The translations under genes were made by a program, and so were the position numbers. From a virus: a stretch of 17,335 bases of DNA. The notes below the pieces were generated by a model. It was not told where the DNA came from and ran no database searches. It was given only the letters and a program-made list of their open reading frames with translations. Below, piece by piece: positions 2,588 through 15,800 of the stretch. Position 1 is the first letter of the stretch. Each line of letters begins with the position of its first letter. The stretch is taken from UHGV virus genome UHGV-1687067; one strand, given 5' to 3'.

Positions 2588-2766
2588 AAAACGAAGTTAA
2601 AGATCTGCAAATAGATATTCAGCGCGACGAGCGTGATTTAGAGACGGTCCGACAAATCCAGGCTTTCCACATGCGCGAATTACTTGCGCTGAAAGAGTTC
2701 GAAAGAAAGCTGGTGCAATCCATTTCTGATCGTAAACGTCTGGCGGCACGTTATGAGGGCAAATAA
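2584..2766 (+). CDS. Hypothetical small protein (60 aa), charged, likely helical
   Basis: ORF with ATG overlapping rusA stop; translationally coupled to Q (TAATG at 2764-2768). No recognisable motif. Confidence 0.45.
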   Translation: MKNEVKDLQIDIQRDERDLETVRQIQAFHMRELLALKEFERKLVQSISDRKRLAARYEGK

Positions 2767-3494
2767 TGAATTTAGAATCCATTCTAAAATTCCACTTTCC
2801 TAAATCACCGCGATTATCTGACGAAAGCCGGGGCACGTCCCCGGACGCTCTTAATACGACGGATGCGCTAACCGCTGCGGGTATGGCGCAATCGCGCGTA
2901 GAGCTTGGATATAGCGCTTTTTTAGGGAAGATGGAACTATCACAAGCCGAAAAACACAGGGCCGTAGTTTTGCTTACAGAGCGTTTAAGGGCTATGGCGA
3001 AAGATTACGAATACGTGATGGAGTTAAACGAGGCACAACGCAATGATCTTATTATTCTTGTTTCCGTTTTCGCGTTTCGGGATTACTGCCAGAGTGCAGC
3101 GACCGAAAAAGTTTGCCCTAAGTGCGGCGGTCACGGGCATTTACCAAATCCATATTGCAAATACACATCAACAATTTGCGCACGGTGCGGCGGCAAAGGC
3201 TACGTTAAAAACCATTGCCAGCGGTGTAAGGGCCGTGGCGAAGTACCGGATAAAGCAGCCAGCGAAGCGGCGGAAATGCCAGTATTCAAAACGTGCCAGC
3301 ATTGCGGCGGGCGTGGGTACTCGCGTTTCCCGGTAGATCTCGTCCGGCAGGCGGTTAATCAGCTTGTTTTTCCGGTAAGCCGATCAACATGGTGGAAGAA
3401 ATACCGGGTTTTCTATGAAGACGCCATAGCGGAGCTATTCAAAGAAGAGGCCCGCGCGGAAAGCGAAATCAAACGAGTGACACGGGGTGAATAA
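2766..3494 (+). CDS. Q: Late-gene antitermination protein Q (lambda Q family) with four CxxCxGxG zinc-finger repeats
   Basis: N-terminus MNLESILKFHFPKSPRLSDESRGTSPDAL...AAGMAQS...GKMELSQ parallels lambda Q (MRLESVAKFHSPKSPMMSDSPRATASDSL...AAMGMAQSQ...GKHELSQ). Central region carries CPKCGGHG, CARCGGKG, CQRCKGRG, CQHCGGRGYSR. Confidence 0.85.
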   Translation: MNLESILKFHFPKSPRLSDESRGTSPDALNTTDALTAAGMAQSRVELGYSAFLGKMELSQAEKHRAVVLLTERLRAMAKDYEYVMELNEAQRNDLIILVSVFAFRDYCQSAATEKVCPKCGGHGHLPNPYCKYTSTICARCGGKGYVKNHCQRCKGRGEVPDKAASEAAEMPVFKTCQHCGGRGYSRFPVDLVRQAVNQLVFPVSRSTWWKKYRVFYEDAIAELFKEEARAESEIKRVTRGE

Positions 3495-3694
3495 TGGATA
3501 AGCTGGAAATAAACGATCAGTTTGCCGTTATCTTATTCGAAGATAAAACAGGCGGCGCATGGTGTAAGAAGGTCACTGGTGCTGAAGCACGCTTAATATT
3601 GGGTATGGCAAGCGCGTTAAATGAAGGCGAATTGCCCGCCATCCCTATTAAGCCTGTAAAAATTTACAAGCGTGGTGACGATGATGAAGCCTAA
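3494..3694 (+). CDS. Hypothetical protein (66 aa)
   Basis: ATG overlaps Q stop (TAATG); first gene of the tightly coupled small-gene island. Confidence 0.45.
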   Translation: MDKLEINDQFAVILFEDKTGGAWCKKVTGAEARLILGMASALNEGELPAIPIKPVKIYKRGDDDEA

Positions 3695-3956
3695 ATTAAA
3701 AGAGCATATTTACCGCCAGTTGGTTAACGATCTGACGGAAACGGCCCGTCATTACGCCGGAACACAACAGCTACGCGGGCGGTTATCTTCAGTTGTCAAC
3801 CGTTACATTGATACCGGATGTCATCGCAAAGGTGAAATCACGATGGACGAGGCCATCAAGCGCCGTTCTGCTGAATGGTCAGTGAGTAATACCGGATTAA
3901 CCGGATATATTGAAGGCTATAACGACTGTTTACAGGATCATAGCGATGGCAAGTAA
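3681..3956 (+). CDS. Hypothetical protein (about 91 aa)
   Basis: Track ORF begins at GTG 3672; internal ATG 3681 (MMKPKLKEH...) with GGTGA upstream is preferred. Confidence 0.4.
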   Translation: MMKPKLKEHIYRQLVNDLTETARHYAGTQQLRGRLSSVVNRYIDTGCHRKGEITMDEAIKRRSAEWSVSNTGLTGYIEGYNDCLQDHSDGK

Positions 3957-4254
3957 AGACCTGCATTTGAATCTGAAAGGGGAATATTTCCACGCTATCC
4001 GGGCGGGAAAGAAGGTGGAGGAATACCGGCTTTATAATGACTATTGGCGTAAACGTCTGGAAGGGCGGGAATATGAGCGCCTGATTATTAAATGGGGATA
4101 CCCTGCCAACCACGAAAAACACAGGATTATTAACCTTCCTTATTTTGGGTACGAAGTGAAAACTATCACACATCCATTATTCGGCACTGATCCGGTGAGA
4201 GTATTCGCAATTAAATGTGATGTGAATTGGATGTTAAGGTGGGTCGAGCAATGA
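3946..4254 (+). CDS. ASCH/PUA-like domain protein (putative)
   Basis: From ATG 3946: MASKDLHLNLKGEYFHAIRAGKKVEEYRLYNDYW... resembles the ASCH N-terminal signature (xLxxKxEYFxxIxxGxKxxExR), recalled from memory. Track start 3910 is TTG and rejected. Confidence 0.4.
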   Translation: MASKDLHLNLKGEYFHAIRAGKKVEEYRLYNDYWRKRLEGREYERLIIKWGYPANHEKHRIINLPYFGYEVKTITHPLFGTDPVRVFAIKCDVNWMLRWVEQ

Positions 4255-4463
4255 AAAGTAACCGTAAACGCCTTGTAAGGGCATATGACAAAGCATTAAT
4301 GACTTTTGATGATCTACGACACAATAAGCGCCGCCGCCGTAAATGGGCGCGTATGCTTGTTAGTGAATGGCATGATGAGGATTTTTTCCTTGAAGCCAGG
4401 CACATGACGCAGGATGTAGCGGACGCATTAGCTGACGAGAACGTTTATTACATGATGTGGTGA
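4251..4463 (+). CDS. Hypothetical basic protein (70 aa)
   Basis: ATG 4251 overlaps upstream stop (ATGA), AAGGTGGG upstream. Arg/Lys-rich (NKRRRRKWAR). Track start 4227 is TTG. Confidence 0.4.
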   Translation: MKSNRKRLVRAYDKALMTFDDLRHNKRRRRKWARMLVSEWHDEDFFLEARHMTQDVADALADENVYYMMW

Positions 4464-4467
4464 TAAT

Positions 4468-4833
4468 ATGCAAATAATCATTGATTATCTTTGCCATGCT
4501 GCAAATACGCTTTTTGGTTTTTATCAGCAACCATTCCTCAAAGAATGGGACGAAATGCTTAATGACATCATTGATAAAGGGTTAATAGTTGAAGTAGGCG
4601 AGCTAACTATAAAATTTAATTACGAAGGAAAAGAATATGATATATGGGTAGGCAACAGATGGTACGCATACGGGCATATTTATTCAATTGGCGGCAAATA
4701 CATTAAACGTAGCCAGGAGTTCAGACCGCGATTCCGCACAATGCGCCGCCTGCGTGACCTGCATATGAATATACTTGAAAATCAGGAAGCGTGTGAACTA
4801 TTCAAAATCTACGGAGATAAATCATGGAACTAA
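4468..4833 (+). CDS. Hypothetical protein (121 aa)
   Basis: ATG 4468, 4 nt after upstream stop; no recognisable motif. Confidence 0.45.
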   Translation: MQIIIDYLCHAANTLFGFYQQPFLKEWDEMLNDIIDKGLIVEVGELTIKFNYEGKEYDIWVGNRWYAYGHIYSIGGKYIKRSQEFRPRFRTMRRLRDLHMNILENQEACELFKIYGDKSWN

Positions 4834-5054
4834 AAATCTGGCAGGCTATCGACGTAGTTGATAACGCGTTATCTATGTTCGCCACTAACGGGAAACGCGT
4901 TGTGATAGCTACATGGACACGTAACCATGATGATATTGTTTTTCGTCGCAAGGCTGCGGAGTGGCTTTTCTCTGACAACGGCTACACGATGAATATCATG
5001 CAGCTTTCCAGAATGAAGGATGAAAAGCTGGTTGATAGTTACACAACTGCATAG
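4824..5054 (+). CDS. Hypothetical protein (76 aa)
   Basis: ATG 4824 overlaps upstream gene end; part of coupled array. Confidence 0.4.
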   Translation: MELKIWQAIDVVDNALSMFATNGKRVVIATWTRNHDDIVFRRKAAEWLFSDNGYTMNIMQLSRMKDEKLVDSYTTA

Positions 5055-5064
5055 TGGGGCAAAT

Positions 5065-5298
5065 ATGTGTATCTATGAACACAAGCGGGATAAAACCCGC
5101 TTTTTTGTTCGTGCTGGCGTGGCTTACCAGTATCACGACTGCGGATATATCGAGGCGCTTGCTTACGATCTGGACTTCGAACAAGAAAAAGAATGGTTCG
5201 ATTTCAAAATTTACCGGAAGCGTAAACCGACGCGCGACGAGCGACACGCTATCCGGGACTTTTTAATCAGCATAGACCGCTGGGAGACAGAGGAATGA
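5065..5298 (+). CDS. Hypothetical protein (about 77 aa)
   Basis: Preferred ATG 5065 (MCIYEHKRDK...) just after upstream stop at 5054; track start 5020 would overlap the upstream gene by 35 nt. Confidence 0.35.
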   Translation: MCIYEHKRDKTRFFVRAGVAYQYHDCGYIEALAYDLDFEQEKEWFDFKIYRKRKPTRDERHAIRDFLISIDRWETEE

Positions 5299-5582
5299 GA
5301 GCGAAGAAAACAGCAGATCAGAAAGCGTTAGTTATCACTACAACTGATGTGTCGTTATTCACGAAGGGTGAAGAAATAGATCTTAAATTACTTTTCGGCA
5401 TGTTTGAGCCACACGAAAAGCCGTGGTTCGTGCATGAAGACAAACAGGGAAATATGCGCGTAGTAGTGCCGGACAAAAACAGCGACATATTTTTTGCTAT
5501 TCCAGACCCGTTACATGACGGTGAATTGCTGGCGGTATTGTTGATCGCTGATGCTGTTACTTATAAAGGGAAAGAAATATGA
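5295..5582 (+). CDS. Hypothetical protein (95 aa)
   Basis: ATGA overlap with upstream stop; GGAG 8 nt upstream. Confidence 0.45.
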   Translation: MRAKKTADQKALVITTTDVSLFTKGEEIDLKLLFGMFEPHEKPWFVHEDKQGNMRVVVPDKNSDIFFAIPDPLHDGELLAVLLIADAVTYKGKEI

Positions 5583-5806
5583 AAGTTAAATTCTTGCACG
5601 ATCACGGCTACCCATCATTAAAACGCGTGGTAGGGGAAACGGTAGACGTTGTTCATTCTGATGATGTGACCTGCGTCATTTTGGGTAAAGACCTTATCGC
5701 TCACGGTGCTGATGATTACTACATTAACCCAGCGTGGTCATATACGTTTAGCCTGGGCGACTTCGTAGGCGATAAGGGGCGCGGCTTGCAAGTAGTCGAG
5801 GGTTAA
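5579..5806 (+). CDS. Hypothetical protein (75 aa)
   Basis: ATGA start/stop overlap at 5579-5582. Confidence 0.45.
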   Translation: MKVKFLHDHGYPSLKRVVGETVDVVHSDDVTCVILGKDLIAHGADDYYINPAWSYTFSLGDFVGDKGRGLQVVEG

Positions 5807-5810
5807 TATC

Positions 5811-6026
5811 ATGGACGTTTACGAAGATTTATACCTTCAAACAAATACCAGCACTTTTTATTTTTTGAAAAACGGCGTCGTATATCGCAGCGATGACGGG
5901 GTAATAATGAAAGAGTGGCTATTTAAACGCAAAGACCTACTTGATGACCTGGTTTTTGCCGGGATATTCCGTAAACGTCCGGCTAACCTGGAAGAAGAAA
6001 TGCTGATCGACGAGGTATTAAAATGA
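5811..6026 (+). CDS. Hypothetical protein (71 aa), possible member of the FxxNGxxY paralog family
   Basis: ATG 5811 with GAGGG upstream; contains FYFLKNGVVYRSDDG, resembling the N-terminal motif of the 6268-7219 paralogs. Confidence 0.4.
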   Translation: MDVYEDLYLQTNTSTFYFLKNGVVYRSDDGVIMKEWLFKRKDLLDDLVFAGIFRKRPANLEEEMLIDEVLK

Positions 6027-6268
6027 AAGTGAATTATTTCAGGGCAAAAGACAAGGCAACAGGAAAGCGGGTGGCTATCCTGGTTAATGAAGCAAATTAT
6101 ATGTTTGTTCTCCAGCCGTGGTGCATAGCTGACTATAACGATGATTATCGCCGTCACGCTGCGCGGCGGGCGGTCGGGATGAAAGGCTGGCAGCCTCGCG
6201 ACATGCTTAATTACTGCGACTGGAATCTGATAGCAAAATACACGGTCGATTATAAAGGGGTTTTCTGA
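6023..6268 (+). CDS. Hypothetical protein (81 aa)
   Basis: ATGA overlap at 6023-6026. Confidence 0.45.
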   Translation: MKVNYFRAKDKATGKRVAILVNEANYMFVLQPWCIADYNDDYRRHAARRAVGMKGWQPRDMLNYCDWNLIAKYTVDYKGVF

Positions 6269-6480
6269 TGCAAGTTAAATGCTCATACTCAAGCAATGAC
6301 AGTGTTTTCACGATTGGGAGTATTTATGACGTTCACATCGTTTATGGCAATGAAGCACACACAATGAGTAATTGCCTTGCCTTGATTGATAATCATGACG
6401 AAATATGGGTATTCAGGCCGAGCTATGAAGGCGGTGAAATATCCGGTGTAGGTTTTGCTGCCAGCTTTGAACGTTATTAA
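6268..6480 (+). CDS. Small paralog-family protein A (70 aa)
   Basis: ATG 6268 overlaps upstream stop; AAAGGGG upstream. Motifs FTIGSIY and IDNHDEIWVF align with the neighbouring three genes. Confidence 0.45.
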   Translation: MQVKCSYSSNDSVFTIGSIYDVHIVYGNEAHTMSNCLALIDNHDEIWVFRPSYEGGEISGVGFAASFERY

Positions 6481-6490
6481 AGGGGCAACA

Positions 6491-6748
6491 ATGAAACATT
6501 TATATTTTGAGGTATTGCAGACGCGCGACCGCAATATTTTTGAAGAAGGGAAGATCTATTGCGGCGTTCAACTCCACGGCGCACCGGGCGGTGATGGTGC
6601 AATGGCGATAACTGGCGATGATGATAAAGTTTATTTCGCTTATGTTAGCCATATCAATAACGCCGCTGGTTTGTATATTTATCGCATAGTGCATGATTTC
6701 CGTGAGATCGCGGAGTTTTGCGCCCGCGAAGGCAGTAAACCGGAATAA
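6491..6748 (+). CDS. Small paralog-family protein B (85 aa)
   Basis: Internal ATG 6491 (MKHLYF...) preceded by AAAGGGG, the same SD context as gene A. Motifs FEEGKIY and ITGDDDKVYFAY. Confidence 0.45.
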   Translation: MKHLYFEVLQTRDRNIFEEGKIYCGVQLHGAPGGDGAMAITGDDDKVYFAYVSHINNAAGLYIYRIVHDFREIAEFCAREGSKPE

Positions 6749-6758
6749 GTGAGGTGCT

Positions 6759-6998
6759 ATGAATCGGAAACATAGATACCAGTGCACATACTCACGATGC
6801 AGCGCGTTTTTTAAGAATGGCAAGATCTACGAGGTTGACGCGGCATTGGTTGACGCAAAGGATCAGGAATATATTCATGCCATTACTGACGACCAGGGGC
6901 AGTTATGGCGATTTTATAAGATGGGTTGTGGCACGGCGCTTGTTTATGCGCGTGCTGGTGGTGGTGCTTTTGCTGCGTTTTCGTATGTAGGGGTATGA
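6759..6998 (+). CDS. Small paralog-family protein C (79 aa)
   Basis: ATG 6759 with GTGAGGTG upstream. Motifs FFKNGKIY and ITDDQGQLWRFY. Confidence 0.45.
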   Translation: MNRKHRYQCTYSRCSAFFKNGKIYEVDAALVDAKDQEYIHAITDDQGQLWRFYKMGCGTALVYARAGGGAFAAFSYVGV

Positions 6999-7000
6999 AA

Positions 7001-7219
7001 ATGATTTTAACGTGTAACGAATCGAAATTGGGCTGTTTTGAGGAAGGCGTACAGTACACGGCTGAAAAACCGATGGGATTGTCTCCTAAATTTCCGTTTA
7101 TCGTCGTGACTGACACTTACGGTCACTTATGGTATGCAGGGCCGCTAGGCGGTATTGGTCGTTATGTTGTCCGTAGTTCGGATGGGGCGATGAAGGTTAC
7201 TTTTACGGAAGAAACGTAA
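7001..7219 (+). CDS. Small paralog-family protein D (72 aa)
   Basis: ATG 7001 (MILTCNESKLGCFEEGVQY...VVTDTYGHLWYAG); in-frame ATG 6995 also possible. Track start 6926 is a long extension in another gene's region and is rejected. Confidence 0.4.
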   Translation: MILTCNESKLGCFEEGVQYTAEKPMGLSPKFPFIVVTDTYGHLWYAGPLGGIGRYVVRSSDGAMKVTFTEET

Positions 7220-7220
7220 A

Positions 7221-7236
7221 TGTGATCTGTATCACA
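7221..7236. promoter_or_regulatory. Palindromic site TGTGAT-CTGT-ATCACA; fits CRP consensus half-sites TGTGA-N6-TCACA (operator-like site, copy 2)
   Basis: Exact 6-bp inverted arms around a 4-bp spacer, 2 nt after the stop at 7219, in a 98-bp intergenic gap. CRP consensus is textbook knowledge; binding is not demonstrated. Confidence 0.35.
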
Positions 7237-7245
7237 AGGTTTACG

Positions 7246-7282
7246 AAATGGCATTGTTTCGGCAGTGCCATTTTGTTATAAA
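7246..7282 (+). promoter_or_regulatory. Hairpin (AAATGGCATTG / CAGTGCCATTT) followed by T-rich run, overlapping a promoter-like TTGTTT-17 nt-TATAAA
   Basis: About 11-bp stem with one G-U wobble and 6-nt loop at 7246-7273, then TTTTGTT. TATAAA at 7277-7282 with TTGTTT 17 nt upstream. Could be terminator, attenuator or promoter. Confidence 0.25.
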
Positions 7283-7317
7283 GAAGCTGAAGAGAGAACG
7301 ATGCGGAGGGTAGAAAA

Positions 7318-7596
7318 ATGAAACGCTGGATTAACAAAGAAGTCGAATCTCGCTTAAACGCATTTTGGGAGATGGTGGAGAAAGAAGACCCAGCACACGC
7401 TGCAAGCCCTTACCTGAACAACATCGAATATCACTACATTGCAGCAAACAACGCGGAGTTCGAAGAAGAAGGTGGAGCCGACAAGTTCGCACAAAGCAAC
7501 GCATTCAACAACGCAAACGAAATGATGATGGCAGTCATCGAACAGGCAGAGGAAGACTACGAATGCAAATCACTTGAATTCGCACGTATGGCATAA
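7318..7596 (+). CDS. Hypothetical acidic protein (92 aa)
   Basis: ATG 7318 with GGAGGG upstream; first gene after the 98-bp regulatory gap. Net charge about -11 (19 Asp/Glu vs 8 Lys/Arg). Confidence 0.5.
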   Translation: MKRWINKEVESRLNAFWEMVEKEDPAHAASPYLNNIEYHYIAANNAEFEEEGGADKFAQSNAFNNANEMMMAVIEQAEEDYECKSLEFARMA

Positions 7597-7606
7597 GGGG
7601 GAAACC

Positions 7607-7747
7607 ATGAACGCTAACGCTAAATATCCGGCCTGGGTTTTCGAACTGTACGCAAGATACTTTGAATTACTGGCACAAGGTGAAGAAGCATTAAGCATTG
7701 ACGAGTACGCGGAGTGCTTAGGGTTTAAAGGAGACGAAGAAGCATAA
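7607..7747 (+). CDS. Hypothetical small acidic protein (46 aa)
   Basis: ATG 7607 with AAGGGGG upstream; MNANAKYPAWVFELYARYFELLAQGEEALSIDEYAECLGFKGDEEA. Not in ORF track (under 60 aa). Confidence 0.35.
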   Translation: MNANAKYPAWVFELYARYFELLAQGEEALSIDEYAECLGFKGDEEA

Positions 7748-7752
7748 AACAC

Positions 7753-7768
7753 GGGGCCGGATGGCCCC
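7753..7768 (+). other. GC-rich hairpin GGGGCC-GGAT-GGCCCC in intergenic gap
   Basis: Perfect 6-bp GC stem with 4-nt loop between genes ending 7747 and starting 7791; no following U-tract, so more likely a stability or processing element than a terminator. Confidence 0.3.
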
Positions 7769-7790
7769 ATCAAATCAGAAGGGTGTAATC

Positions 7791-8090
7791 ATGAAAAGCG
7801 CTAAATTTATTGCTTGCTGTTTTGTTGAAGTTCCTAACGATGATGTTTTCTGTAATTATGAATTTAAAGACAGCTTAGGCAGATCTCATGTTGTTGTTGG
7901 TAAGCGCGGCGACTGGTTATATATCACTGATGGAGACAGGATCTTCACTAAAAACCAGTTGTTAATAATAAAGGCAGAAAATGATGAAATACCAGTAGGT
8001 AATATGGGGATTATGAATTATCACGCTGGTTTATTGTTAAAGCACGATACGGTAAACAAAGCGCGTAGCTTACCTGGTGCGGAGTTTTAA
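7791..8090 (+). CDS. Hypothetical protein (99 aa)
   Basis: Internal ATG 7791 (MKSAKFIACCF...) with AGAAGGGTG upstream; track start 7761 rejected. Confidence 0.45.
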   Translation: MKSAKFIACCFVEVPNDDVFCNYEFKDSLGRSHVVVGKRGDWLYITDGDRIFTKNQLLIIKAENDEIPVGNMGIMNYHAGLLLKHDTVNKARSLPGAEF

Positions 8091-8093
8091 TTT

Positions 8094-8348
8094 ATGGAAA
8101 TAATCAAAATATGGCGCGGCAACAGTAAGGCTGACGGTGAGTTTTGCCGCGTCGTTCAATTCGTAAATTATGGTAGGTTTTACGAGCTACCTTATGACAA
8201 AAGGAAAGATGATTTCTATTTAAGCGAGTCAATCCCGGTGCACAGAAAAATAAAGGCGCTTAGGGGGTTATTGCGAAGTGGTTTTTATTCTTGCCCTAAC
8301 CCATTAAACAATCCTGAACTGGTAGCTATTTTTTACGAAGGAGAATAG
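8094..8348 (+). CDS. Hypothetical protein (84 aa)
   Basis: ATG 8094 with GGAG upstream, 3 nt after upstream stop. Confidence 0.45.
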   Translation: MEIIKIWRGNSKADGEFCRVVQFVNYGRFYELPYDKRKDDFYLSESIPVHRKIKALRGLLRSGFYSCPNPLNNPELVAIFYEGE

Positions 8349-8351
8349 ACA

Positions 8352-8675
8352 ATGTCTAAATTTATCAGCGTTAAAGTTTTCCGTGGCACTTTACCGAACG
8401 AAGAAAGATTAGGACAATTTGCCGGGCAACCTAGTGCATGTTTCCGTGTAGCCACTGAAGACGATGCGCATGTTAAATGCTTCCACGTATCGGAACCGCC
8501 TTTTAATGCAGACCATCTTGAAGACCCGGATAGAATTAAAAGCCTAGTTTTTGCCTATCTGATGTTCCAGGGTATCGCTAATATGGAAGTGGAATTGCTT
8601 GGCGCTGAACTGGCGGCAGAATACAAAGTGACTGAAGGCGAAAACGGAGGGGTGGAAATTGAGCGCATCAAATAA
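8352..8675 (+). CDS. Hypothetical protein (107 aa)
   Basis: ATG 8352 with AAGGAGAA upstream. Confidence 0.5.
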   Translation: MSKFISVKVFRGTLPNEERLGQFAGQPSACFRVATEDDAHVKCFHVSEPPFNADHLEDPDRIKSLVFAYLMFQGIANMEVELLGAELAAEYKVTEGENGGVEIERIK

Positions 8676-8910
8676 ACCTTACAAGATCCGGTGTAAAGGC
8701 GAATACCCTGGGTTTACGATTGGTTGCGAATACCTGGGCCACATTGGGTACGGCCCTTTCGGTGAGTTAGGGATGAATACGATGGACGACGACGGCGACA
8801 GCAGGACGCTTGATCTTGATTCTGATGATTTCGAATACATCCCTCCAGTTACTTACCGTGCCGTTGATGATTTCCTGGCTGAACATGAAGACGAGGGCGA
8901 TGATGATTGA
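8659..8910 (+). CDS. Hypothetical protein with strongly acidic C-terminus (83 aa), probable TTG start
   Basis: No in-frame ATG or GTG near the 5' end; TTG 8659 has GGAGGGG about 5 nt upstream. C-terminal half is Asp/Glu-rich (DDDGDSRTLDLDSDDFEY...EHEDEGDDD). Confidence 0.4.
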   Translation: MSASNKPYKIRCKGEYPGFTIGCEYLGHIGYGPFGELGMNTMDDDGDSRTLDLDSDDFEYIPPVTYRAVDDFLAEHEDEGDDD

Positions 8911-9097
8911 ATGCCTTATAGCTGTGATTGTTTTGCTTTATATCGCTGGCGCTATCCTGATGTCTTGTTTTATTAAGTTTAGCGGAGCTGAACCTGGCGG
9001 CCTTGAGATTCCTTTTTGGCCTGTGACTGTGTTTATCGCTTTCTTCGACGCTACGGCAGGGCAGATCAATCGAGCTATTAAGGAGCGCAAGAAATGA
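8903..9097 (+). CDS. Small membrane protein (about 64 aa, two predicted hydrophobic helices)
   Basis: ATG 8900 or 8903 in frame of track ORF 8810..9097. Translation MIECLIAVIVLLYIAGAILMSCF...FWPVTVFIAFF is hydrophobic; track N-terminal extension rejected. Confidence 0.4.
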   Translation: MIECLIAVIVLLYIAGAILMSCFIKFSGAEPGGLEIPFWPVTVFIAFFDATAGQINRAIKERKK

Positions 9098-9273
9098 TTG
9101 AAGATGGGGTGTACGCAACAGTAGTAGACGGGCTGTTTTACCGCGTAGAAGGTGATGATATTCGCATCCGCGTTGGCGGTGGTGAGTGGGTAGCGCCAAT
9201 CATTAAGACGACGCGAGAAACAATTAAAATATTTCTTGATGCTGGTGAACTGGTGAGGGTTAGCGACCTATGA
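9094..9273 (+). CDS. Hypothetical small protein (59 aa), paralog of the next gene
   Basis: ATG 9094 with AAGGAG upstream, overlaps upstream stop (ATGA). MIEDGVYATVVDGLFYRVEGDDIRIRVGG... Not in ORF track. Confidence 0.4.
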   Translation: MIEDGVYATVVDGLFYRVEGDDIRIRVGGGEWVAPIIKTTRETIKIFLDAGELVRVSDL

Positions 9274-9446
9274 ACGAGATCGAAGATGGTATCTATTTGC
9301 ATAAGGTATTTAACATCGTCTATTTACTTAAAGGTAATAAGGTGATGATAAGACCTGATGACGATCCACATTGGGAATCAAGCGACATGGATCGGCGGCA
9401 TATGCAAATGTTGGTTGATAACGGCCTGATATATAGAAAGCCGTAA
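9270..9446 (+). CDS. Hypothetical small protein (58 aa), paralog of the previous gene
   Basis: ATGA overlap at 9270-9273, GTGAGGG upstream. MNEIEDGIYLHKVFNIVYLLKGNKVMIRPDDD... shares the N-terminal (I)EDG(V/I)Y motif. Not in ORF track. Confidence 0.4.
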   Translation: MNEIEDGIYLHKVFNIVYLLKGNKVMIRPDDDPHWESSDMDRRHMQMLVDNGLIYRKP

Positions 9447-9453
9447 GCCGTAT

Positions 9454-9482
9454 TTGTAGGGCGTAAACAAACAGATTAAAAT
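9454..9482 (+). promoter_or_regulatory. Candidate late promoter (PR'-like): TTGTAG-17 nt-TAAAAT
   Basis: Hexamers with 17-nt spacer in the gap upstream of the holin, about 30 nt before an intrinsic terminator, as in the lambda PR'-tR' arrangement. Weak -35; inference only. Confidence 0.3.
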
Positions 9483-9510
9483 ATTTCCTAACAATGCGAA
9501 ATTGTAATTA

Positions 9511-9532
9511 CCCGGCCCCGCGCCGGGTTTTT
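9511..9532 (+). terminator. Rho-independent terminator (tR'-like) just upstream of the lysis cassette
   Basis: CCCGGC-cccgc-GCCGGG (6-bp GC stem, 5-nt loop) followed by TTTTT, about 20 nt before the holin SD (GGAGG at 9541-9545). Confidence 0.6.
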
Positions 9533-9552
9533 GCTTTGTTGGAGGAAAATCT

Positions 9553-9753
9553 ATGTTCGACAAAATACGGGAGGCGTGCGCGTATGTGACTGGGGCCGTA
9601 ACTGCTTTTTTCGGCGCGATAACCATCAATGACATTGCCGTCTTTGTGGGTATCTTATCAACCGTAGGCACATTTGCCGTTAACTATTACTTCAAATCAC
9701 AGGAGAACAAGCGAGCGCAAGAGGAACACGACGCGCGAATGGGGAATAAGTAA
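9553..9753 (+). CDS. Class II holin (pinholin, S21-like)
   Basis: 66 aa with two hydrophobic segments (AYVTGAVTAFFGAI; IAVFVGILSTVGTFAVNYYF) and charged C-terminus; immediately precedes a SAR endolysin; resembles phage 21 S (NLYFK vs NYYFK). Confidence 0.7.
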   Translation: MFDKIREACAYVTGAVTAFFGAITINDIAVFVGILSTVGTFAVNYYFKSQENKRAQEEHDARMGNK

Positions 9754-10245
9754 ATGATTAGCCAATCGCTGAAAAACAAGATTATTGCTGCGGCGGCTGG
9801 CGGGGCGATCGCTATTGCGGCTGTGATGGTTAAACCATTAGAAGGCGTGGAGTACGATCCGTATCGTGATGCTATCGGTGTATGGACTGTATGTTATGGT
9901 CACACCGGAAAAGACATTATGCTGGGTAAAACTTACACGCAATCAGAATGCGATGCTTTGTTAAACAAAGATCTCCACAAAACCGCAAAAGCGATTGACC
10001 CATATATTAAAGTCGAAATATCAGATTTTACCCGCGCGGCGCTTTATTCATTCGCCTATAACGTAGGCGCTACCAACTTCAAAACATCAACATTATTGAA
10101 GCTACTCAATGACGGCAAGAAATCGGAGGCGTGCGCACAGCTTAAACGCTGGATATATGCTGGTGGTAAGCAGTGGCAAGGGTTAATTAACCGCCGTGAT
10201 GTTGAATATGCCGTTTGCGAATGGGGTGAAACATGGACAAGGTGA
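9754..10245 (+). CDS. SAR endolysin (T4 lysozyme-like muramidase, P21 R-like)
   Basis: N-terminal Gly/Ala-rich signal-anchor-release segment ([17 protein letters not shown]) followed by [33 protein letters not shown], matching phage 21 R along its length, with the E-D-T catalytic spacing. Confidence 0.9.
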
Positions 10246-10703
10246 AGACGTTAATCATCGCCGTTGTTGTTTGCATTATTGCCGGGCTTACCGCCGTAAC
10301 GTGTTATTACCAGGGTGAGGCGGCAAGGTTACAGGAAGAAGTCACGGTGACGAAAGGCGCACTAAAAACAGCAAGTAACACTATCCAGCAGATGAAGGAG
10401 CGAAACGCCGAACTGTCAAAACTTGATAAGAGGTATCACGATGAGATTAAAGCTATCAGATCTGACATTGCCGATCTTCGCGCTGGCATTGATAGCGGTG
10501 CTATCAGGTTGCACGTCAACGCCGAGCCAGTGTACGTGCACGACGCCACCGGAACCGCCAGCAGCATTAATGGAGCCACCTGTAGACTTACTGCCAGTGC
10601 TCAATCAAATTATCTATCCCTCAGAGAACAACTAAAAGAGAAAGACGCGAAGATCACCGGATTACAGGACTACATCAAAACGCAGTGCATACGCAAAGAA
10701 TAA
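10233..10703 (+). CDS. Rz-like i-spanin
   Basis: N-terminal TM helix ([16 protein letters not shown]), coiled-coil-like middle, and RLHV...YLSLREQL...QCIRKE matching lambda Rz (RRLHIKA...YFTLRERL...EQCR). Overlaps endolysin 3' end. Confidence 0.75.
10441..10635 (+). CDS. Rz1-like o-spanin lipoprotein, embedded in +1 frame of Rz
   Basis: ATG 10441 with AGAGG about 8 nt upstream. [24 protein letters not shown] has lipobox LSGC; short Pro-rich mature region ([19 protein letters not shown]). Embedded architecture is classic. Confidence 0.7.
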   Translation: MRLKLSDLTLPIFALALIAVLSGCTSTPSQCTCTTPPEPPAALMEPPVDLLPVLNQIIYPSENN

Positions 10704-10982: not shown

Positions 10983-11525
10983 ATGGCTAAGGCTAAAGGC
11001 ATTAAATTGCCTCAATTTAAGATCCCACTCTTTGAGCATACAACCGTTTTCTTTTGCCCGACCCGCGAGATGTTCTATGAATTTTGCGAAAAGGCAGGAA
11101 TTCCGATTGAACCTGATTTCGAGTTGGCTGGAGGATTAACGCTTACTTGCACTGGCGAGAATGGTGGTAACTTCTACGTGATCGCAGTATTCAACAATGA
11201 GTTGGGAACGCTGGTCCATGAATGCGCCCACACTACATTCCACGTTTTAAGTGATGTAGGCGTCGTGGCTACCACGGATCCTACCCATCCGGCGAATGAG
11301 ACTTACGCTTACATGGTAGGCCGTATCTTCGATGCGTTTTTCCCTATCCTAGCAGAATCAAACGAAGCACAGGTTGCAGCAATGCAGGCGGCAGAAGTCG
11401 TCGATCAGGCGCTGGAACAGGCAGAACAGCCGAAGGAAGAAGAAAAGCCAGCGAAGAAAGGTAAACGTAAGCCGAAAGCAAAAGAAGCGCTTGTACCGCG
11501 TGTTATGAGTTTTAAACGAGGCTGA
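10983..11525 (+). CDS. Hypothetical protein with HExxH motif (possible zinc metallopeptidase-like) and Lys/Glu-rich C-terminal tail
   Basis: ATG 10983 with AGGAG 9 nt upstream. Motif LVHECAHTTFH (HExxHxxxH) in the middle; C-terminus low-complexity (EQPKEEEKPAKKGKRKPKAKE). Family not recognised. Confidence 0.5.
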   Translation: MAKAKGIKLPQFKIPLFEHTTVFFCPTREMFYEFCEKAGIPIEPDFELAGGLTLTCTGENGGNFYVIAVFNNELGTLVHECAHTTFHVLSDVGVVATTDPTHPANETYAYMVGRIFDAFFPILAESNEAQVAAMQAAEVVDQALEQAEQPKEEEKPAKKGKRKPKAKEALVPRVMSFKRG

Positions 11526-11527
11526 TT

Positions 11528-11617
11528 ATGATTGCGTCAATACTAACTTTCGTCGGCGGGATGGCGGCTGGATTCATCCTTTGCCTGTTTCTGGTAGTTA
11601 TGTCTATGCGAGACTGA
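11528..11617 (+). CDS. Micro-ORF 1: hydrophobic peptide, 29 aa (MIASILTFVGGMAAGFILCLFLVVMSMRD)
   Basis: ATG 2 nt after upstream stop, GAGG upstream; single predicted TM helix. Missed by ORF track (under 60 aa). Confidence 0.35.
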   Translation: MIASILTFVGGMAAGFILCLFLVVMSMRD

Positions 11618-11619
11618 TT

Positions 11620-11682
11620 ATGGACGCTTATTTATTTATCGGAATGGCGGCGGCTGTAATATTGTTTTTGTTGTGGAAGTAA
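11620..11682 (+). CDS. Micro-ORF 2: hydrophobic peptide, 20 aa (MDAYLFIGMAAAVILFLLWK)
   Basis: ATG 11620; N-terminus MDAY shared with micro-ORF 3; the same DNA context TGATTATGGACGCTTA precedes both. Confidence 0.35.
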   Translation: MDAYLFIGMAAAVILFLLWK

Positions 11683-11687
11683 TGATT

Positions 11688-11792
11688 ATGGACGCTTACA
11701 TCATTGCCGGATTAATCGGCGTTTCTGTGTTTCTTGCTGGTTCTATTATAGTTGCGCTGATAAACGTATATATCAAGTATTTGGTGGGGTGA
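11688..11792 (+). CDS. Micro-ORF 3: hydrophobic peptide, 34 aa (MDAYIIAGLIGVSVFLAGSIIVALINVYIKYLVG)
   Basis: ATG 11688 (in-frame ATG 11682 overlaps upstream TAA); paralog of micro-ORF 2. Confidence 0.35.
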   Translation: MDAYIIAGLIGVSVFLAGSIIVALINVYIKYLVG

Positions 11793-11797
11793 AAAAT

Positions 11798-11872
11798 ATG
11801 ATTGACCCGCTAATTATCCTTTCTGCCTGCGTCGCTGTATGGCTGGCGATCATGATATTCATTGAAAGCTGA
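11798..11872 (+). CDS. Micro-ORF 4: hydrophobic peptide, 24 aa (MIDPLIILSACVAVWLAIMIFIES)
   Basis: ATG 11798 with GGTGGGG upstream. Confidence 0.35.
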   Translation: MIDPLIILSACVAVWLAIMIFIES

Positions 11873-11883
11873 AGGTATCCACA

Positions 11884-11964
11884 ATGAACGCATACGAAAT
11901 GCTATTGCTGGTGGCTGTTATTACAGTTATTGCCGTAGATGTTTATCGGGAGTTTAAAAAATGA
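11884..11964 (+). CDS. Micro-ORF 5: hydrophobic peptide, 26 aa (MNAYEMLLLVAVITVIAVDVYREFKK)
   Basis: ATG 11884 with AAGG upstream; stop overlaps next start. Confidence 0.35.
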   Translation: MNAYEMLLLVAVITVIAVDVYREFKK

Positions 11965-12029
11965 AATGGCTTGATTTCTTTTTCCTGATCGTTGCGATTG
12001 TTCTCACTATGACCGCGCTTGCTCAATAG
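11961..12029 (+). CDS. Micro-ORF 6: hydrophobic peptide, 22 aa (MKWLDFFFLIVAIVLTMTALAQ)
   Basis: ATG 11961 overlapping upstream TGA; GGGAG upstream. Confidence 0.35.
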   Translation: MKWLDFFFLIVAIVLTMTALAQ

Positions 12030-12037
12030 GTGAAAGC

Positions 12038-12112
12038 ATGAACGCTATTGATATTATGTTGATCGTGTGTACCGTTGCATTAGTTATTATTGGGGTGATT
12101 ATCAATGTCTGA
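12038..12112 (+). CDS. Micro-ORF 7: hydrophobic peptide, 24 aa (MNAIDIMLIVCTVALVIIGVIINV)
   Basis: ATG 12038 with AGGTGA upstream. Confidence 0.35.
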   Translation: MNAIDIMLIVCTVALVIIGVIINV

Positions 12113-12173
12113 TGGTGATTTCTTAATCATGGCTATATGCACGCTGTTAACTGTTATTGTTTTCTTCGCGTAA
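12105..12173 (+). CDS. Micro-ORF 8: hydrophobic peptide, 22 aa (MSDGDFLIMAICTLLTVIVFFA)
   Basis: ATG 12105 overlapping micro-ORF 7 by 8 nt, GGGGTGA upstream; alternative start ATG 12129. Confidence 0.3.
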   Translation: MSDGDFLIMAICTLLTVIVFFA

Positions 12174-12182
12174 AGGTAAACA

Positions 12183-12266
12183 ATGAAAGAATTATTCGAT
12201 TGGTTGGAAGTATTAACATACTGTGCAAGTTTTGTTGCTTGCGTATATATCATCAATAAATATTGA
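12183..12266 (+). CDS. Micro-ORF 9: hydrophobic peptide, 27 aa (MKELFDWLEVLTYCASFVACVYIINKY)
   Basis: ATG 12183 with AAGG upstream; ends 10 nt before the terS start. Confidence 0.35.
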   Translation: MKELFDWLEVLTYCASFVACVYIINKY

Positions 12267-12276
12267 GAGGTGAATT

Positions 12277-12792
12277 ATGGCCCGCACTAAAAAGGCAAAA
12301 GCTGACGACAAAAAGCCAGCCGCAAAAAGGGTGGGCCGTCCGCATGGTTATACCGAAGAAAAGGCGTTAGAAATCTGTGAACTGGTGGCGGACGGTCAGA
12401 GCGTTAACAAAATTTCGAAGATGCCTGGTATGCCTACCCGTTCAACAATCCTGAAATGGTTTAGAGACGTGCCGGAATTCTCGGACATGTACATGCGCGC
12501 GAAGGAAATCGGCTTCGAGGTATTAGCTGATGAGATCCTCGATATAGCTGATGATGCTAAGAACGTTGATAAAGACCAACTACGCCGCCACCAATTAATG
12601 ATTGAAACGCGTAAATGGTTATTGGCTAAGCTACAACCGCGCAAATACGGCGAACGCGTCACACAGGAGATCGTCGGTAACAAGGAAGAAGCACCCGTCC
12701 AGGTAGAAGTAAATCAGACTACTGTCCTTGAGATAATCGATAACCTGAATAAGGAGTACAATACTCATGGAGACTGCGACGACAAAGATTGA
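12277..12792 (+). CDS. Terminase small subunit (putative)
   Basis: ATG 12277 with GAGGTGA upstream. Basic N-terminus (MARTKKAKADDKKPAAKRVGRPHGY), HTH-like segment (GQSVNKISKMPGMPTRSTILKWF), and position directly upstream of and overlapping the large terminase. Confidence 0.65.
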   Translation: MARTKKAKADDKKPAAKRVGRPHGYTEEKALEICELVADGQSVNKISKMPGMPTRSTILKWFRDVPEFSDMYMRAKEIGFEVLADEILDIADDAKNVDKDQLRRHQLMIETRKWLLAKLQPRKYGERVTQEIVGNKEEAPVQVEVNQTTVLEIIDNLNKEYNTHGDCDDKD

Positions 12793-14299: not shown

Positions 14300-14429
14300 C
14301 TTCGAAAAATTTCCGAAGATGAACAAGAATAATTCTCAATTGGCTACATAAAATCTGCCTCACAATCCCCCGCAAGTTTTTATATTTTTCGCGTAGCAAC
14401 GCGTAAACATGTATTCAGGAGTAAACATT

Positions 14430-15800
14430 ATGCCATCCAATTTAGAATTGGCGGTTAATGCTGCCTTGTCACAACGCCAGGCGGCCTTTGCCCGCTATGC
14501 AGCCGCTAACCCATTCTCAATGGGTATTGATGCAAAACGTGATGCTGCGTGGAGTGAATACGGATTCAAAGAAGAAATCACCTATGCCGATTTATACAAA
14601 CTGTATCGTCGCGGTGGTATCGCTCACGGTGCTATTGAGAAGATCATTACTACGTGCTGGCGCACCAGGCCAACGCTGATTGAAGGTACGGAAGACGAGA
14701 AAGCGGAAAAGGAAACTTCGTGGGAAAGAGAAATCAAAAAACGATTCGACAATAGATTCTGGCGCGTAATTGCTGAATGCGATCGCCGCCGCCTCATCGG
14801 TCGTTATGCTGGACTGTTAATTCACGTCAGGGATAACAAGCCGTGGGATCAGCCAGTAACAAAAGGCGTAGGCATTGCCAAATTTACCCCCGTATGGGCT
14901 GGTGCTCTTACACCGAAGGACTTCGAAGAAAACCCGGATAAAGAAAACTATGGCCTGCCTACATGGTGGGAATACAAGGAGCGCATTAACAGTAAGACCA
15001 TAGCAAGAAAGATACATCCAGATCGCATATTTATCTTCGGTGATTATTCTGATGATGCCATCGCTTTCCTTGAACCGTCCTATAACGCATTCGTTTCACT
15101 GGAGAAAGTGGAAGGCGGCAGCGGTGAATCATTCCTGAAAAACGCAGCACGTCAACTGGCTATCTCGTTCGATAAAGAAATTGATTTCCGTTCTCTGGCT
15201 GCAACATACGGTTGCGACGTTACAGAGCTACGCGAAAAATTCAATGAAGCGGCAGAGGATATAAATAAAGGTAATGATGTGATGATGGCATTACAGGGAG
15301 CTACCGTTAGCCCGCTGGTTACTGCCGTAGCAGATCCTTCCGCTACCTATGACGTCAACCTGCAAACCGCAGCCGCTGGTATCGATATTCCAACGCGTAT
15401 CCTGGTTGGGAATCAGCAGGGCGAACGCGCATCAACCGAAGACCTCCGCTACTTCAATAACCGCTGCATGACCCGCCGTGAGGAAATAGGAGGTGAGCTT
15501 GAGGAGCTATTCCGCAAGATGGCAGATCTCCGCCTTATCAGTATGCCAGTAGACGTATCTGTACTGTGGGACGACCTTAACGCCATGACAAAAGCAGAGC
15601 TACTCGACGCGGCATACAAAATGGCACAAATCAATCAGGCATGTCTCGCTACTGGTGAGGAAATATTCAGCGGTGACGAGATCCGCGAAGCTGCCGGATA
15701 CGATGGCCCGGCTAGTGAGGTAGAACTGGAAGAGGAAAACGATGATGAATGTGAAGAAGATAATCAGGCGAATACCTCCAGCCGCGATAATGCCATCTAA
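14430..15800 (+). CDS. Portal protein (putative)
   Basis: 456 aa from ATG 14430 (AGGAG 8 nt upstream; track start 14409 rejected); located directly after terL, acidic C-terminal tail (EVELEEENDDECEEDNQ). Assignment rests on synteny and size, not a named motif. Confidence 0.55.
   Translation: MPSNLELAVNAALSQRQAAFARYAAANPFSMGIDAKRDAAWSEYGFKEEITYADLYKLYRRGGIAHGAIEKIITTCWRTRPTLIEGTEDEKAEKETSWEREIKKRFDNRFWRVIAECDRRRLIGRYAGLLIHVRDNKPWDQPVTKGVGIAKFTPVWAGALTPKDFEENPDKENYGLPTWWEYKERINSKTIARKIHPDRIFIFGDYSDDAIAFLEPSYNAFVSLEKVEGGSGESFLKNAARQLAISFDKEIDFRSLAATYGCDVTELREKFNEAAEDINKGNDVMMALQGATVSPLVTAVADPSATYDVNLQTAAAGIDIPTRILVGNQQGERASTEDLRYFNNRCMTRREEIGGELEELFRKMADLRLISMPVDVSVLWDDLNAMTKAELLDAAYKMAQINQACLATGEEIFSGDEIREAAGYDGPASEVELEEENDDECEEDNQANTSSRDNAI

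Follow-up and report, generated by a model that had tools for sequence, protein, structure and literature searches.

A candidate late promoter, pause element and terminator lying kilobases from a Q-lambda-family antiterminator gene in mEp021-like phages

Background

The gene for the antiterminator Q and its transcription unit have been described as adjacent (PMC9388147). In the Q-lambda family the Q-binding element (QBE) sits between the -35 and -10 hexamers (PMC6606751), and in lambda a -10-like pause element occupies positions +1 to +6, with the discriminator GGG at +7 to +9 (PMC5001585). Here we describe a stretch of 17,335 nucleotides from the virus genome UHGV-1687067 (the window, by which we mean the whole stretch). 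In it, a gene for a Q-lambda-family protein is followed, only after a long chain of small open reading frames (ORFs), by a putative module of late promoter (PR'), sigma70-dependent pause element and intrinsic terminator (tR') just upstream of the holin gene.

Between positions 2700 and 10300 only seven phage records (mEp010, mEp013, mEp021, mEp044, mEp515, mEp554 and MagusPhagus) match the window, with 85-89% DNA identity over 44-85% of the region, and its gene order is common to mEp021 and mEp010. Sequence similarity thus places the window in the mEpimmI (mEp021-like) phage group of Escherichia coli, prophage relatives of which were found in 35 of 5,426 complete E. coli genomes. The mEpimmI phages have been characterized as Nus-dependent, non-lambdoid temperate coliphages, in which a Q-lambda-like protein was noted, together with Gp17, an N-like protein that has three nut sites (PMC11893012). 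The term 'late promoter' is absent from that paper, where 'promoter' occurs once, for the vector Ptac, and hence it describes no pause element or Q-utilisation site (qut). The phage group, the Q-like gene and the terminator are accordingly already on record; for the promoter and pause element, and for a consistently non-adjacent arrangement, we found no description in a literature of incomplete coverage.

Results and discussion

A long-arm member of the Q-lambda family

The gene at 2766-3494 on the + strand encodes a protein of 242 aa that matches phrog_127 (E = 3.5e-77), Pfam PF03589 (103 bits, the cutoff being 26.7) and, in two stretches that together cover the protein, the lambda Q structure PDB 7ubm (E = 3e-36). 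In tblastn comparisons it is about 33% identical to lambda Q over the full length, the aligned regions being the N-terminal, helix-turn-helix body and zinc-ribbon regions. At the position of the lambda Q zinc-ribbon arm it differs from that protein by an insertion of about 35 residues with two extra CxxC pairs. This long-arm form is the one found in most family members, such as those of phi80, SE1Spa and the ES18-type phages, the short form being that of lambda and P22. The variable sites of the gene among relatives are distributed over codon positions 1, 2 and 3 as 35/27/142, which indicates that it is under purifying selection. On these matches the protein is a Q-lambda-family antiterminator, and we refer to it below as Q.

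When relatives are compared, no other part of the protein varies nearly as much as the extra zinc-ribbon insertion (residues 116-149, window 3111-3212): variation is seen at nearly every position of residues 116-148, the rest of the protein being conserved. A scan for Q in representative genome contigs gave 164 pattern matches, none of which was confirmed, and no close relative was present there.

The predicted promoter, pause element and terminator

The proposed module lies between the stop codon of the last small ORF (9446) and the holin gene, and comprises the following features:

9454-9459, + strand: -35-like hexamer TTGTAG, weak and variable
9465-9476, + strand: A-rich spacer block AAACAAACAGAT, candidate Q-binding element
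9477-9482, + strand: -10 hexamer TAAAAT, invariant
9490-9498, + strand: predicted transcription start and putative sigma70-dependent pause element AACAAT (+1 to +6), then a discriminator-like GCG
9510-9533, + strand: intrinsic terminator tR', with stem ACCCGGC/GCCGGGT, loop CCCGC and T-run
9541-9545, + strand: holin ribosome-binding site GGAGG
9553-9753, + strand: holin gene (PHROG and Pfam matches)

An earlier note on this DNA had pointed to TTGTAG, 17 nt and TAAAAT as promoter-like. The two hexamers stand where it placed them, and the -10 hexamer, with five of six consensus matches, is invariant in 34 distinct sequences as well as in a more distant locus whose Q is 71% identical (L102); the -35 hexamer, however, is weak and not conserved across the group. 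The window continues from the -10 hexamer as TAAAAT-ATTTCCT-AACAAT-GCG, so that AACAAT follows after 7 nt. The sequence CTAACAATGCGAAA is likewise invariant in the 34 distinct sequences, and a pause-like hexamer of equal position and form is seen as AACGAT in lambda and P22, AACGCT in phi80, AACAGT in SE1Spa and AACAAT in a further locus (L186). In P22 the RNA is annotated as starting with the first A of AACGAT. Judged by these comparisons, AACAAT-GCG, which the earlier note had overlooked, is the strongest argument for interpreting the region as PR', pause element and tR'.

The same note had recognized a GC-stem terminator with a T-run just upstream of the holin gene, and this was borne out: the hairpin at 9510-9528, followed by TTTTG, has a 7-bp stem with 6 G-C pairs, and no other + strand site ranked higher in the terminator scan of the window. 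The scan proves little when taken alone, since 16 terminator-like sites were found in the whole window against 18.0 expected by chance. A homologous hairpin is already annotated as T9 in mEp010 and as TERM_5 in mEp021, the GenBank record of which lists TERM_1 to TERM_5 in strand order. Of the mEp021 terminators, t1, t2 and t5 are listed as experimentally demonstrated (PMC11893012), and if the two numberings correspond, t5 is probably the terminator at 9510.

A distance of 20 nt separates the end of the terminator from the holin start codon at 9553, and transcription starting at A9490 would give a terminated leader of about 43-45 nt. The length of about 45 nt that had been proposed earlier holds for this start; a short leader, however, is not unusual, with the P22 terminator annotated at +31 to +59 and a median leader of about 65 nt in the lambdoid loci considered below. 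An RNA of about 43 nt would be shorter than the P22 leader, though of similar magnitude. The leader has a predicted folding energy of -21 kcal/mol, and in the predicted fold its 5' AACAA-GCGAAA pairs with U-rich sequence lying past the terminator. At the predicted start of the transcript, AACAAUGCGAAA (9490-9501) is complementary to UUUUUGCUUUGUU (9528-9540) just past the terminator, and in read-through RNA the pairing of AACAAUGCGAAA with UUUUUGCUUUGUU would extend the hairpin to within a few nucleotides of the holin ribosome-binding site. A boxB-like ACAAT-GCGAA-ATTGT (9492-9506) was considered and rejected, its stem being broken by the common variants ACTGT, GTGT and CTATA. The antisense ORF that spans the module (9378-9671) matched no PHROG family.

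Comparison with characterized late promoters

We compared the module with the post-Q regions of lambda, P22, phi80, SE1Spa and a lambdoid metagenomic relative with a 40% identical Q (L105). Annotations in this set include P late, qut, the RNA 5' nucleotide and t late of P22, and pR' and the Q site of phi80. All five regions show a -10 hexamer, 5-7 nt, (C/T)TAAC(G/A)NT and then an intrinsic terminator, the annotated terminator starting about 30 nt (P22) or about 45 nt (phi80) after the pause element; in L105 the whole module directly follows Q. Put more generally, the layout shared by this set and by 65 of the 72 lambdoid loci surveyed below is a -10 hexamer, 5-8 nt, (C/T)TAAC(A/G)NT and a terminator 30-75 nt further on. 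This match to characterized late promoters, together with the family of Q, supports the earlier suggestion that the region has the lambdoid short-leader arrangement on which Q acts.

Lambda resembles the window in having a homologous Q and a series of -10 hexamer, 6-7 nt, AACNAT with a G/C-rich triplet, intrinsic terminator and lysis genes. It differs in that only about 50 nt lie between the Q stop codon and its PR', as against 5,960 bp and about 28 ORFs in the window, and in that its leader measures 194 nt as against about 43 nt. Moreover, lambda has a strong -35 hexamer TTGACT and a second -35-like TTGACT beside the pause element, both lacking in the window, and the spacer sequence, our candidate QBE, is unrelated to that of lambda. 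P22 shares with the window a short terminated leader (terminator at +31 to +59, as given above), and SE1Spa, with a 37% identical Q, the long-arm form of the protein; in P22 and P22-like phages, however, P late adjoins gene 23, and several hundred non-coding nucleotides separate tR' from the holin gene, as against 20 nt here. Phage phi80 likewise has a long-form Q (36% identical) and reads TAGATT, 7 nt, AACGCT-GGG, with the terminator about 45 nt later. Unlike that of the window, the phi80 pR' adjoins Q, and its annotated Q site TCGCGGA abuts a good -35 hexamer, TTGCAT.

A further parallel is offered by the Stx phages, in which a constitutive late promoter with an immediate terminator is reported to yield a short RNA (StxS) in lysogens (PMC7547250). 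They also carry several kilobases of accessory genes between Q and the lysis genes. These genes, however, come after PR'/tR' and are thus late and Q-dependent, whereas those of the window come before it, and the Stx-phage Q proteins belong to other Q families than the Q of the window.

Conservation of the module

The region upstream of the holin gene was aligned for 49 sequences, 34 of them distinct (the window with phage, prophage and IMG/VR loci), and a second alignment of 45 distinct relatives covered the core 9465-9552. In the latter, 55 of 88 columns are invariant, as compared with 14 of 67 third codon positions in the holin gene and 30 of 164 in the lysozyme gene (18-21%). In its conservation the non-coding core thus resembles first and second codon positions. 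It is this conservation, rather than any count of pattern matches, which shows that the module is more than chance. In the 34-sequence alignment, no variation occurs in GATTAAAATA, CTAACAATGCGAAA, the two arms of the terminator stem or the T-run; the variable parts are the hairpin loop, the 7-nt stretch separating the -10 hexamer from AACAAT, and the stretch from the pause element to the hairpin.

Homology to the window begins at one of three points, namely far upstream, at the stop codon of the upstream ORF or at 9465, and two prophages share the module alone, with a different holin. This suggests that the module is a unit preserved during the exchange of its neighbors. A core of 33 nt is unique within the window, and a scan of IMG/VR with the core motif recovered contigs of the same phage group only, in none of which the module stands beside a Q gene.

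The promoter spacer and the region upstream of it

Within the spacer block, all 34 distinct E. coli-group sequences have AACAAA and GAT, the consensus being AAACAAA(C/T)(A/G)GAT; the more divergent L102 has AAAAAGAT at this position. Given the location of the QBE in this family, AAACAAACAGAT appears the best candidate for the element bound by Q, although this is only a guess from its position and conservation.

Upstream of 9465 the sequences fall into two classes. Class 1 reads GCCGTATTTGT(A/G)G..., from which the TTG of the -35 hexamer derives, and the hexamer varies among relatives as TTGTGG and TTGTAT; the seven cultured phages, which align unbroken across the upstream region, appear to be of this class. 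Class 2 reads (G/A)CCATAATCGCGCAT..., which places TCGCGC at the -35 position. Overall, TTG at -35 with a 17-nt spacer is kept in three quarters of the group. At 31 nt upstream of TAAAAT a CATAAT box is conserved in class-2 relatives (e.g. L010, 9695-9700), which in one locus pairs with GTGAAA in the upstream ORF; such a -35 is not conserved among class-2 loci. The TCGCGC of class 2 is reminiscent of TCGCGGA, annotated as the Q site of phi80, but its spacing from the -10 hexamer differs: the TCGCG of these relatives is 7 bp further from it than that of phi80, and their equivalence is unproven. No covariation of Q residues with the two upstream classes was found (best uncorrected p 0.014 among 70 variable columns).

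Distance between Q and the module

The earlier note had considered the physical separation of Q from its presumed target unusual, and a survey of the family supports this. We scanned for a -10-like hexamer with A at its second and T at its sixth position, followed after 5-8 nt by AA[CT][AG]NT and by a terminator within 135 nt. A match lies within 250 nt of the Q stop codon in 65 of 72 lambdoid Q-lambda-family loci, at a median of 54 nt and with the median leader of about 65 nt given above. Six of the seven loci that failed the scan were inspected, and four of these still have the element beside Q: three with a lambda-like long leader, and one (L127) missed through a Q stop codon set too far downstream. 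Adjacency is not clear in the other two (L179 and L180), the latter having opposite-strand inserts after Q and a distal match that looks like chance. In contrast, in all 44 mEp-type loci the module lies from 1.9 kb (mEp021) to 6.7 kb from the Q stop codon, with a median of 5.4 kb, and is the only conserved pattern match between Q and the lysis genes.

In the window the Q stop codon (3494) overlaps the ATG of the next ORF, and in relatives with Q at 71% and 46% identity Q is also directly followed by overlapping small ORFs; the first of these, L102, keeps both the module and the separation. The split arrangement is thus a stable feature of the lineage, being shared by the mEp-type loci and these relatives. 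We found no paper on a non-adjacent Q and transcription unit in a literature search of incomplete coverage. Since Q is a diffusible DNA-binding protein, the distance poses no mechanistic obstacle; the separation is a difference of genome organisation and timing.

A probable mode of action, and its alternatives

The genes and signals against which these elements have to be read are, besides Q, the module and the holin gene:

418-1227, + strand: DNA methyltransferase gene
1325-1380, + strand: boxA-like TGCTCTTTAA (1325-1334) and short A-rich-loop hairpins, in the gap that follows the methyltransferase gene
1488-2183, + strand: NinG gene
2180-2587, + strand: RusA gene
3494-9446, + strand: chain of about 28 small same-strand ORFs (from the ORF list)
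5083-5110, + strand: terminator-like hairpin AAGCGGG-ATAAAA-CCCGCTT, then TTTTG, inside the ORF 5065-5266 (phrog_30442), codons 7-14
9754-10245, + strand: lysozyme gene (PHROG and Pfam matches)
10233-10703, + strand: Rz-like spanin gene (PHROG and Pfam matches)
downstream of the lysis cassette, + strand: small and large terminase subunit genes
14409-15800, + strand: putative portal ORF

We consider it likely that 9454-9533 is a PR'/sigma70 pause/tR' cassette that is read through with Q, the intervening ORFs being early genes under the control of Gp17 and nut. What the sequences show directly is the elements themselves, how they are conserved, the family of Q and the contrast in architecture; from these we infer promoter activity, pausing, a Q-binding site, dependence on Q and the early timing of these ORFs. 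RNA polymerase would start at about A9490 from a sigma70 promoter equivalent to the lambdoid PR', sigma region 2 would re-bind AACAAT (+1 to +6) on the non-template strand, and a pause would follow at about +14 to +17. Without Q, transcription would terminate at 9528-9533 and an RNA of about 43 nt would be released. Q, binding DNA in or beside the promoter spacer (best candidate AAACAAACAGAT), would load onto the paused complex and render it terminator-resistant, so that the holin, endolysin, spanin, terminase and morphogenesis genes would be transcribed. The roughly 2-7 kb of accessory ORFs, translationally chained to Q, would presumably be transcribed with it from an early promoter under Gp17/nut; unlike in lambdoid phages, Q would then not be the last gene of the early operon.

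Several observations weigh against this interpretation. The -35 hexamer TTGTAG agrees with TTGACA at three of six positions, and the hexamer pair falls below the threshold of the consensus promoter scan and is therefore unlisted; nor is there an extended -10 element at TAAAAT. TCGCGC stands at -35 in 11 of 43 loci and in L102. The pattern of a -10 hexamer, N5-8 and AAC[AG]NT is by itself expected about 8 times per shuffled window. The conserved spacer block does not resemble known QBEs: no similarity of the module to the lambda or phi80 Q-binding sequences was found, and with no covariation of Q residues either, AAACAAACAGAT is no more than a candidate for the Q site. The lambda-specific -35-like element beside the pause element is not matched either, ATTTCC having two of six positions in common with TTGACA and being the most variable part of the core. 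However, such an element has been reported absent from other lambdoid late promoters (PMC6606751), and hence this third element of lambda does not define the family. Finally, N-like antitermination from nutR2 could also carry polymerase through the terminator.

This last point underlies the alternative that survives best, although we regard it as unlikely. In that case the hairpin would only close the early operon, as t5, the N-like Gp17 acting at nutR2 would give late read-through, and TAAAAT/AACAAT would serve otherwise, for example as a plain Q-independent promoter for the lysis genes. A nut-like site is indeed found upstream of the 9510 hairpin in what would be the same transcription unit: the boxA-like TGCTCTTTAA agrees in position with the published nutR2, downstream of the cytosine methyltransferase gene (PMC11893012, section 3.5), and this nutR2-like boxA/boxB lies 8 kb upstream on the same strand, with all genes from it to the terminator co-oriented. 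The early antitermination of the group is documented experimentally (PMC11893012), and the -35 hexamer is weak or absent. What this alternative leaves unexplained is a full-length Q-lambda homologue under purifying selection, and, at the module, the invariant -10 hexamer, the exact spacing, AACAAT-GCG and the pause architecture of the family. In lambda the N and Q systems coexist, so that read-through by N does not exclude control by Q.

It is considerably less probable that Q needs no conventional promoter at all, either by loading on paused early-operon complexes or by a spacer-bound Q replacing recognition of the -35 hexamer. If true, promoter-free loading or -35 substitution would differ from the modes of Q action that have been described for lambda, 21 and 82. 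The first of these forms, taken by itself, is more doubtful still: no dedicated promoter would exist, and polymerase from the early operon would pause at TAAAAT and AACAAT through retained or re-bound sigma70, where Q would load. It would accommodate the approximately one quarter of relatives without a recognizable -35 hexamer, the two invariant -10-like hexamers 13 bp apart and the position of the module at the end of a long co-oriented operon. However, three quarters of the group keep TTG at -35 with the 17-nt spacer, and the elements follow one another as they do in true promoters of the family. Moreover, sigma-dependent pausing far from a promoter is inefficient.

Equally improbable is a target nearer to Q, at 3477-3517 or upstream of the 5083 hairpin, with both hairpins as downstream terminators and the small ORFs late: the Q-adjacent motif has the right spacing and the canonical position, and the 5083 hairpin is very strongly conserved with a compensatory change and lies about 260 nt after Q in mEp021, but the Q-adjacent hexamers vary synonymously (GTGACG and GTTACG; TAAACT and CAAGTT), the motif is missing in mEp021, the L007-type junction, L102 and L104, and 43 of 45 loci lack a terminator within 135 nt of it. 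As for the 5083 hairpin, a conserved CACGAT block does lie upstream, but it is not preceded by any -10-like hexamer having A2 and T6. Accordingly, the sequence GTGACA-16-TAAGCT-7-AACGAT (3477-3517) was rejected as PR', being coding-driven and variable at synonymous sites.

ORFs and signals between Q and the module

Most ORFs of the interval match PHROG families of unknown function, and their content and total length (1.9-6.7 kb) vary among relatives; as stated for the likely mode of action, the ORFs from 3494 to 9446 would belong to the early operon, transcribed from PR with N-like antitermination. The hairpin at 5083-5110 is exact in 42 of the 46 loci that carry it. In mEp010 a compensatory synonymous pair, G->C with C->G (CGG->CGC and ACC->ACG), keeps the stem. 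Comparative evidence of this kind makes it very likely that the hairpin is a real structure, which may terminate transcription within the early operon or act as a translation-sensitive attenuator. Upstream of it, nothing promoter- or pause-like is conserved in the relatives compared, and the region shows ordinary codon-position variation. A promoter match at 4972-4999 (CTGACA-16-TATCAT) was discarded, as it is not conserved and relatives have AACATC at the -10 position.

A perfect CRP-consensus palindrome, TGTGATCTGTATCACA (7221-7236), lies in an intergenic gap of 99 nt. It is followed at 7250-7282 by an 8-bp inverted repeat, AAATGGCA...TGCCATTT, with TATAAA about 60 nt downstream. Of the related loci, 10 carry the palindrome region unchanged and a further 7 with 1-2 mismatches. 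This may be a promoter dependent on cyclic AMP and CRP for the ORFs from 7318 on. Between + strand ORFs, a strong terminator-like hairpin of 8 pairs, 6 of them G-C, is found on the - strand at 7751-7770; there is no - strand gene nearby, and 27 of 51 related loci have the hairpin with 0-2 mismatches. Its role may be to stop antisense transcription. Directly upstream of the predicted late promoter, the ORFs 9094-9273 and 9270-9446 (59 and 58 aa) both match phrog_15318 and look like a tandem duplication.

Elsewhere in the window, the roughly 750 nt that precede the small terminase gene (11525-12277) form a gap with no + strand ORF of at least 50 aa, and only tiny ORFs are annotated in its mEp010 equivalent; it could contain the packaging site or another regulatory region. 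An Rfam scan of the whole window gave no family at threshold.

Conclusion

The split cassette proposed here is a modest variation on the textbook switch. If our reading is right, about 28 genes of unknown function would move to the early rather than the late class, and the leader, of about 43 nt, would be among the shortest in the family. A constitutive short terminated RNA of this kind could act as a small RNA of the prophage, as StxS does in Stx phages. The Q-utilisation site of a long-arm relative of Q-lambda would be narrowed to about 45 bp, and tight linkage between Q and qut would not be obligatory.

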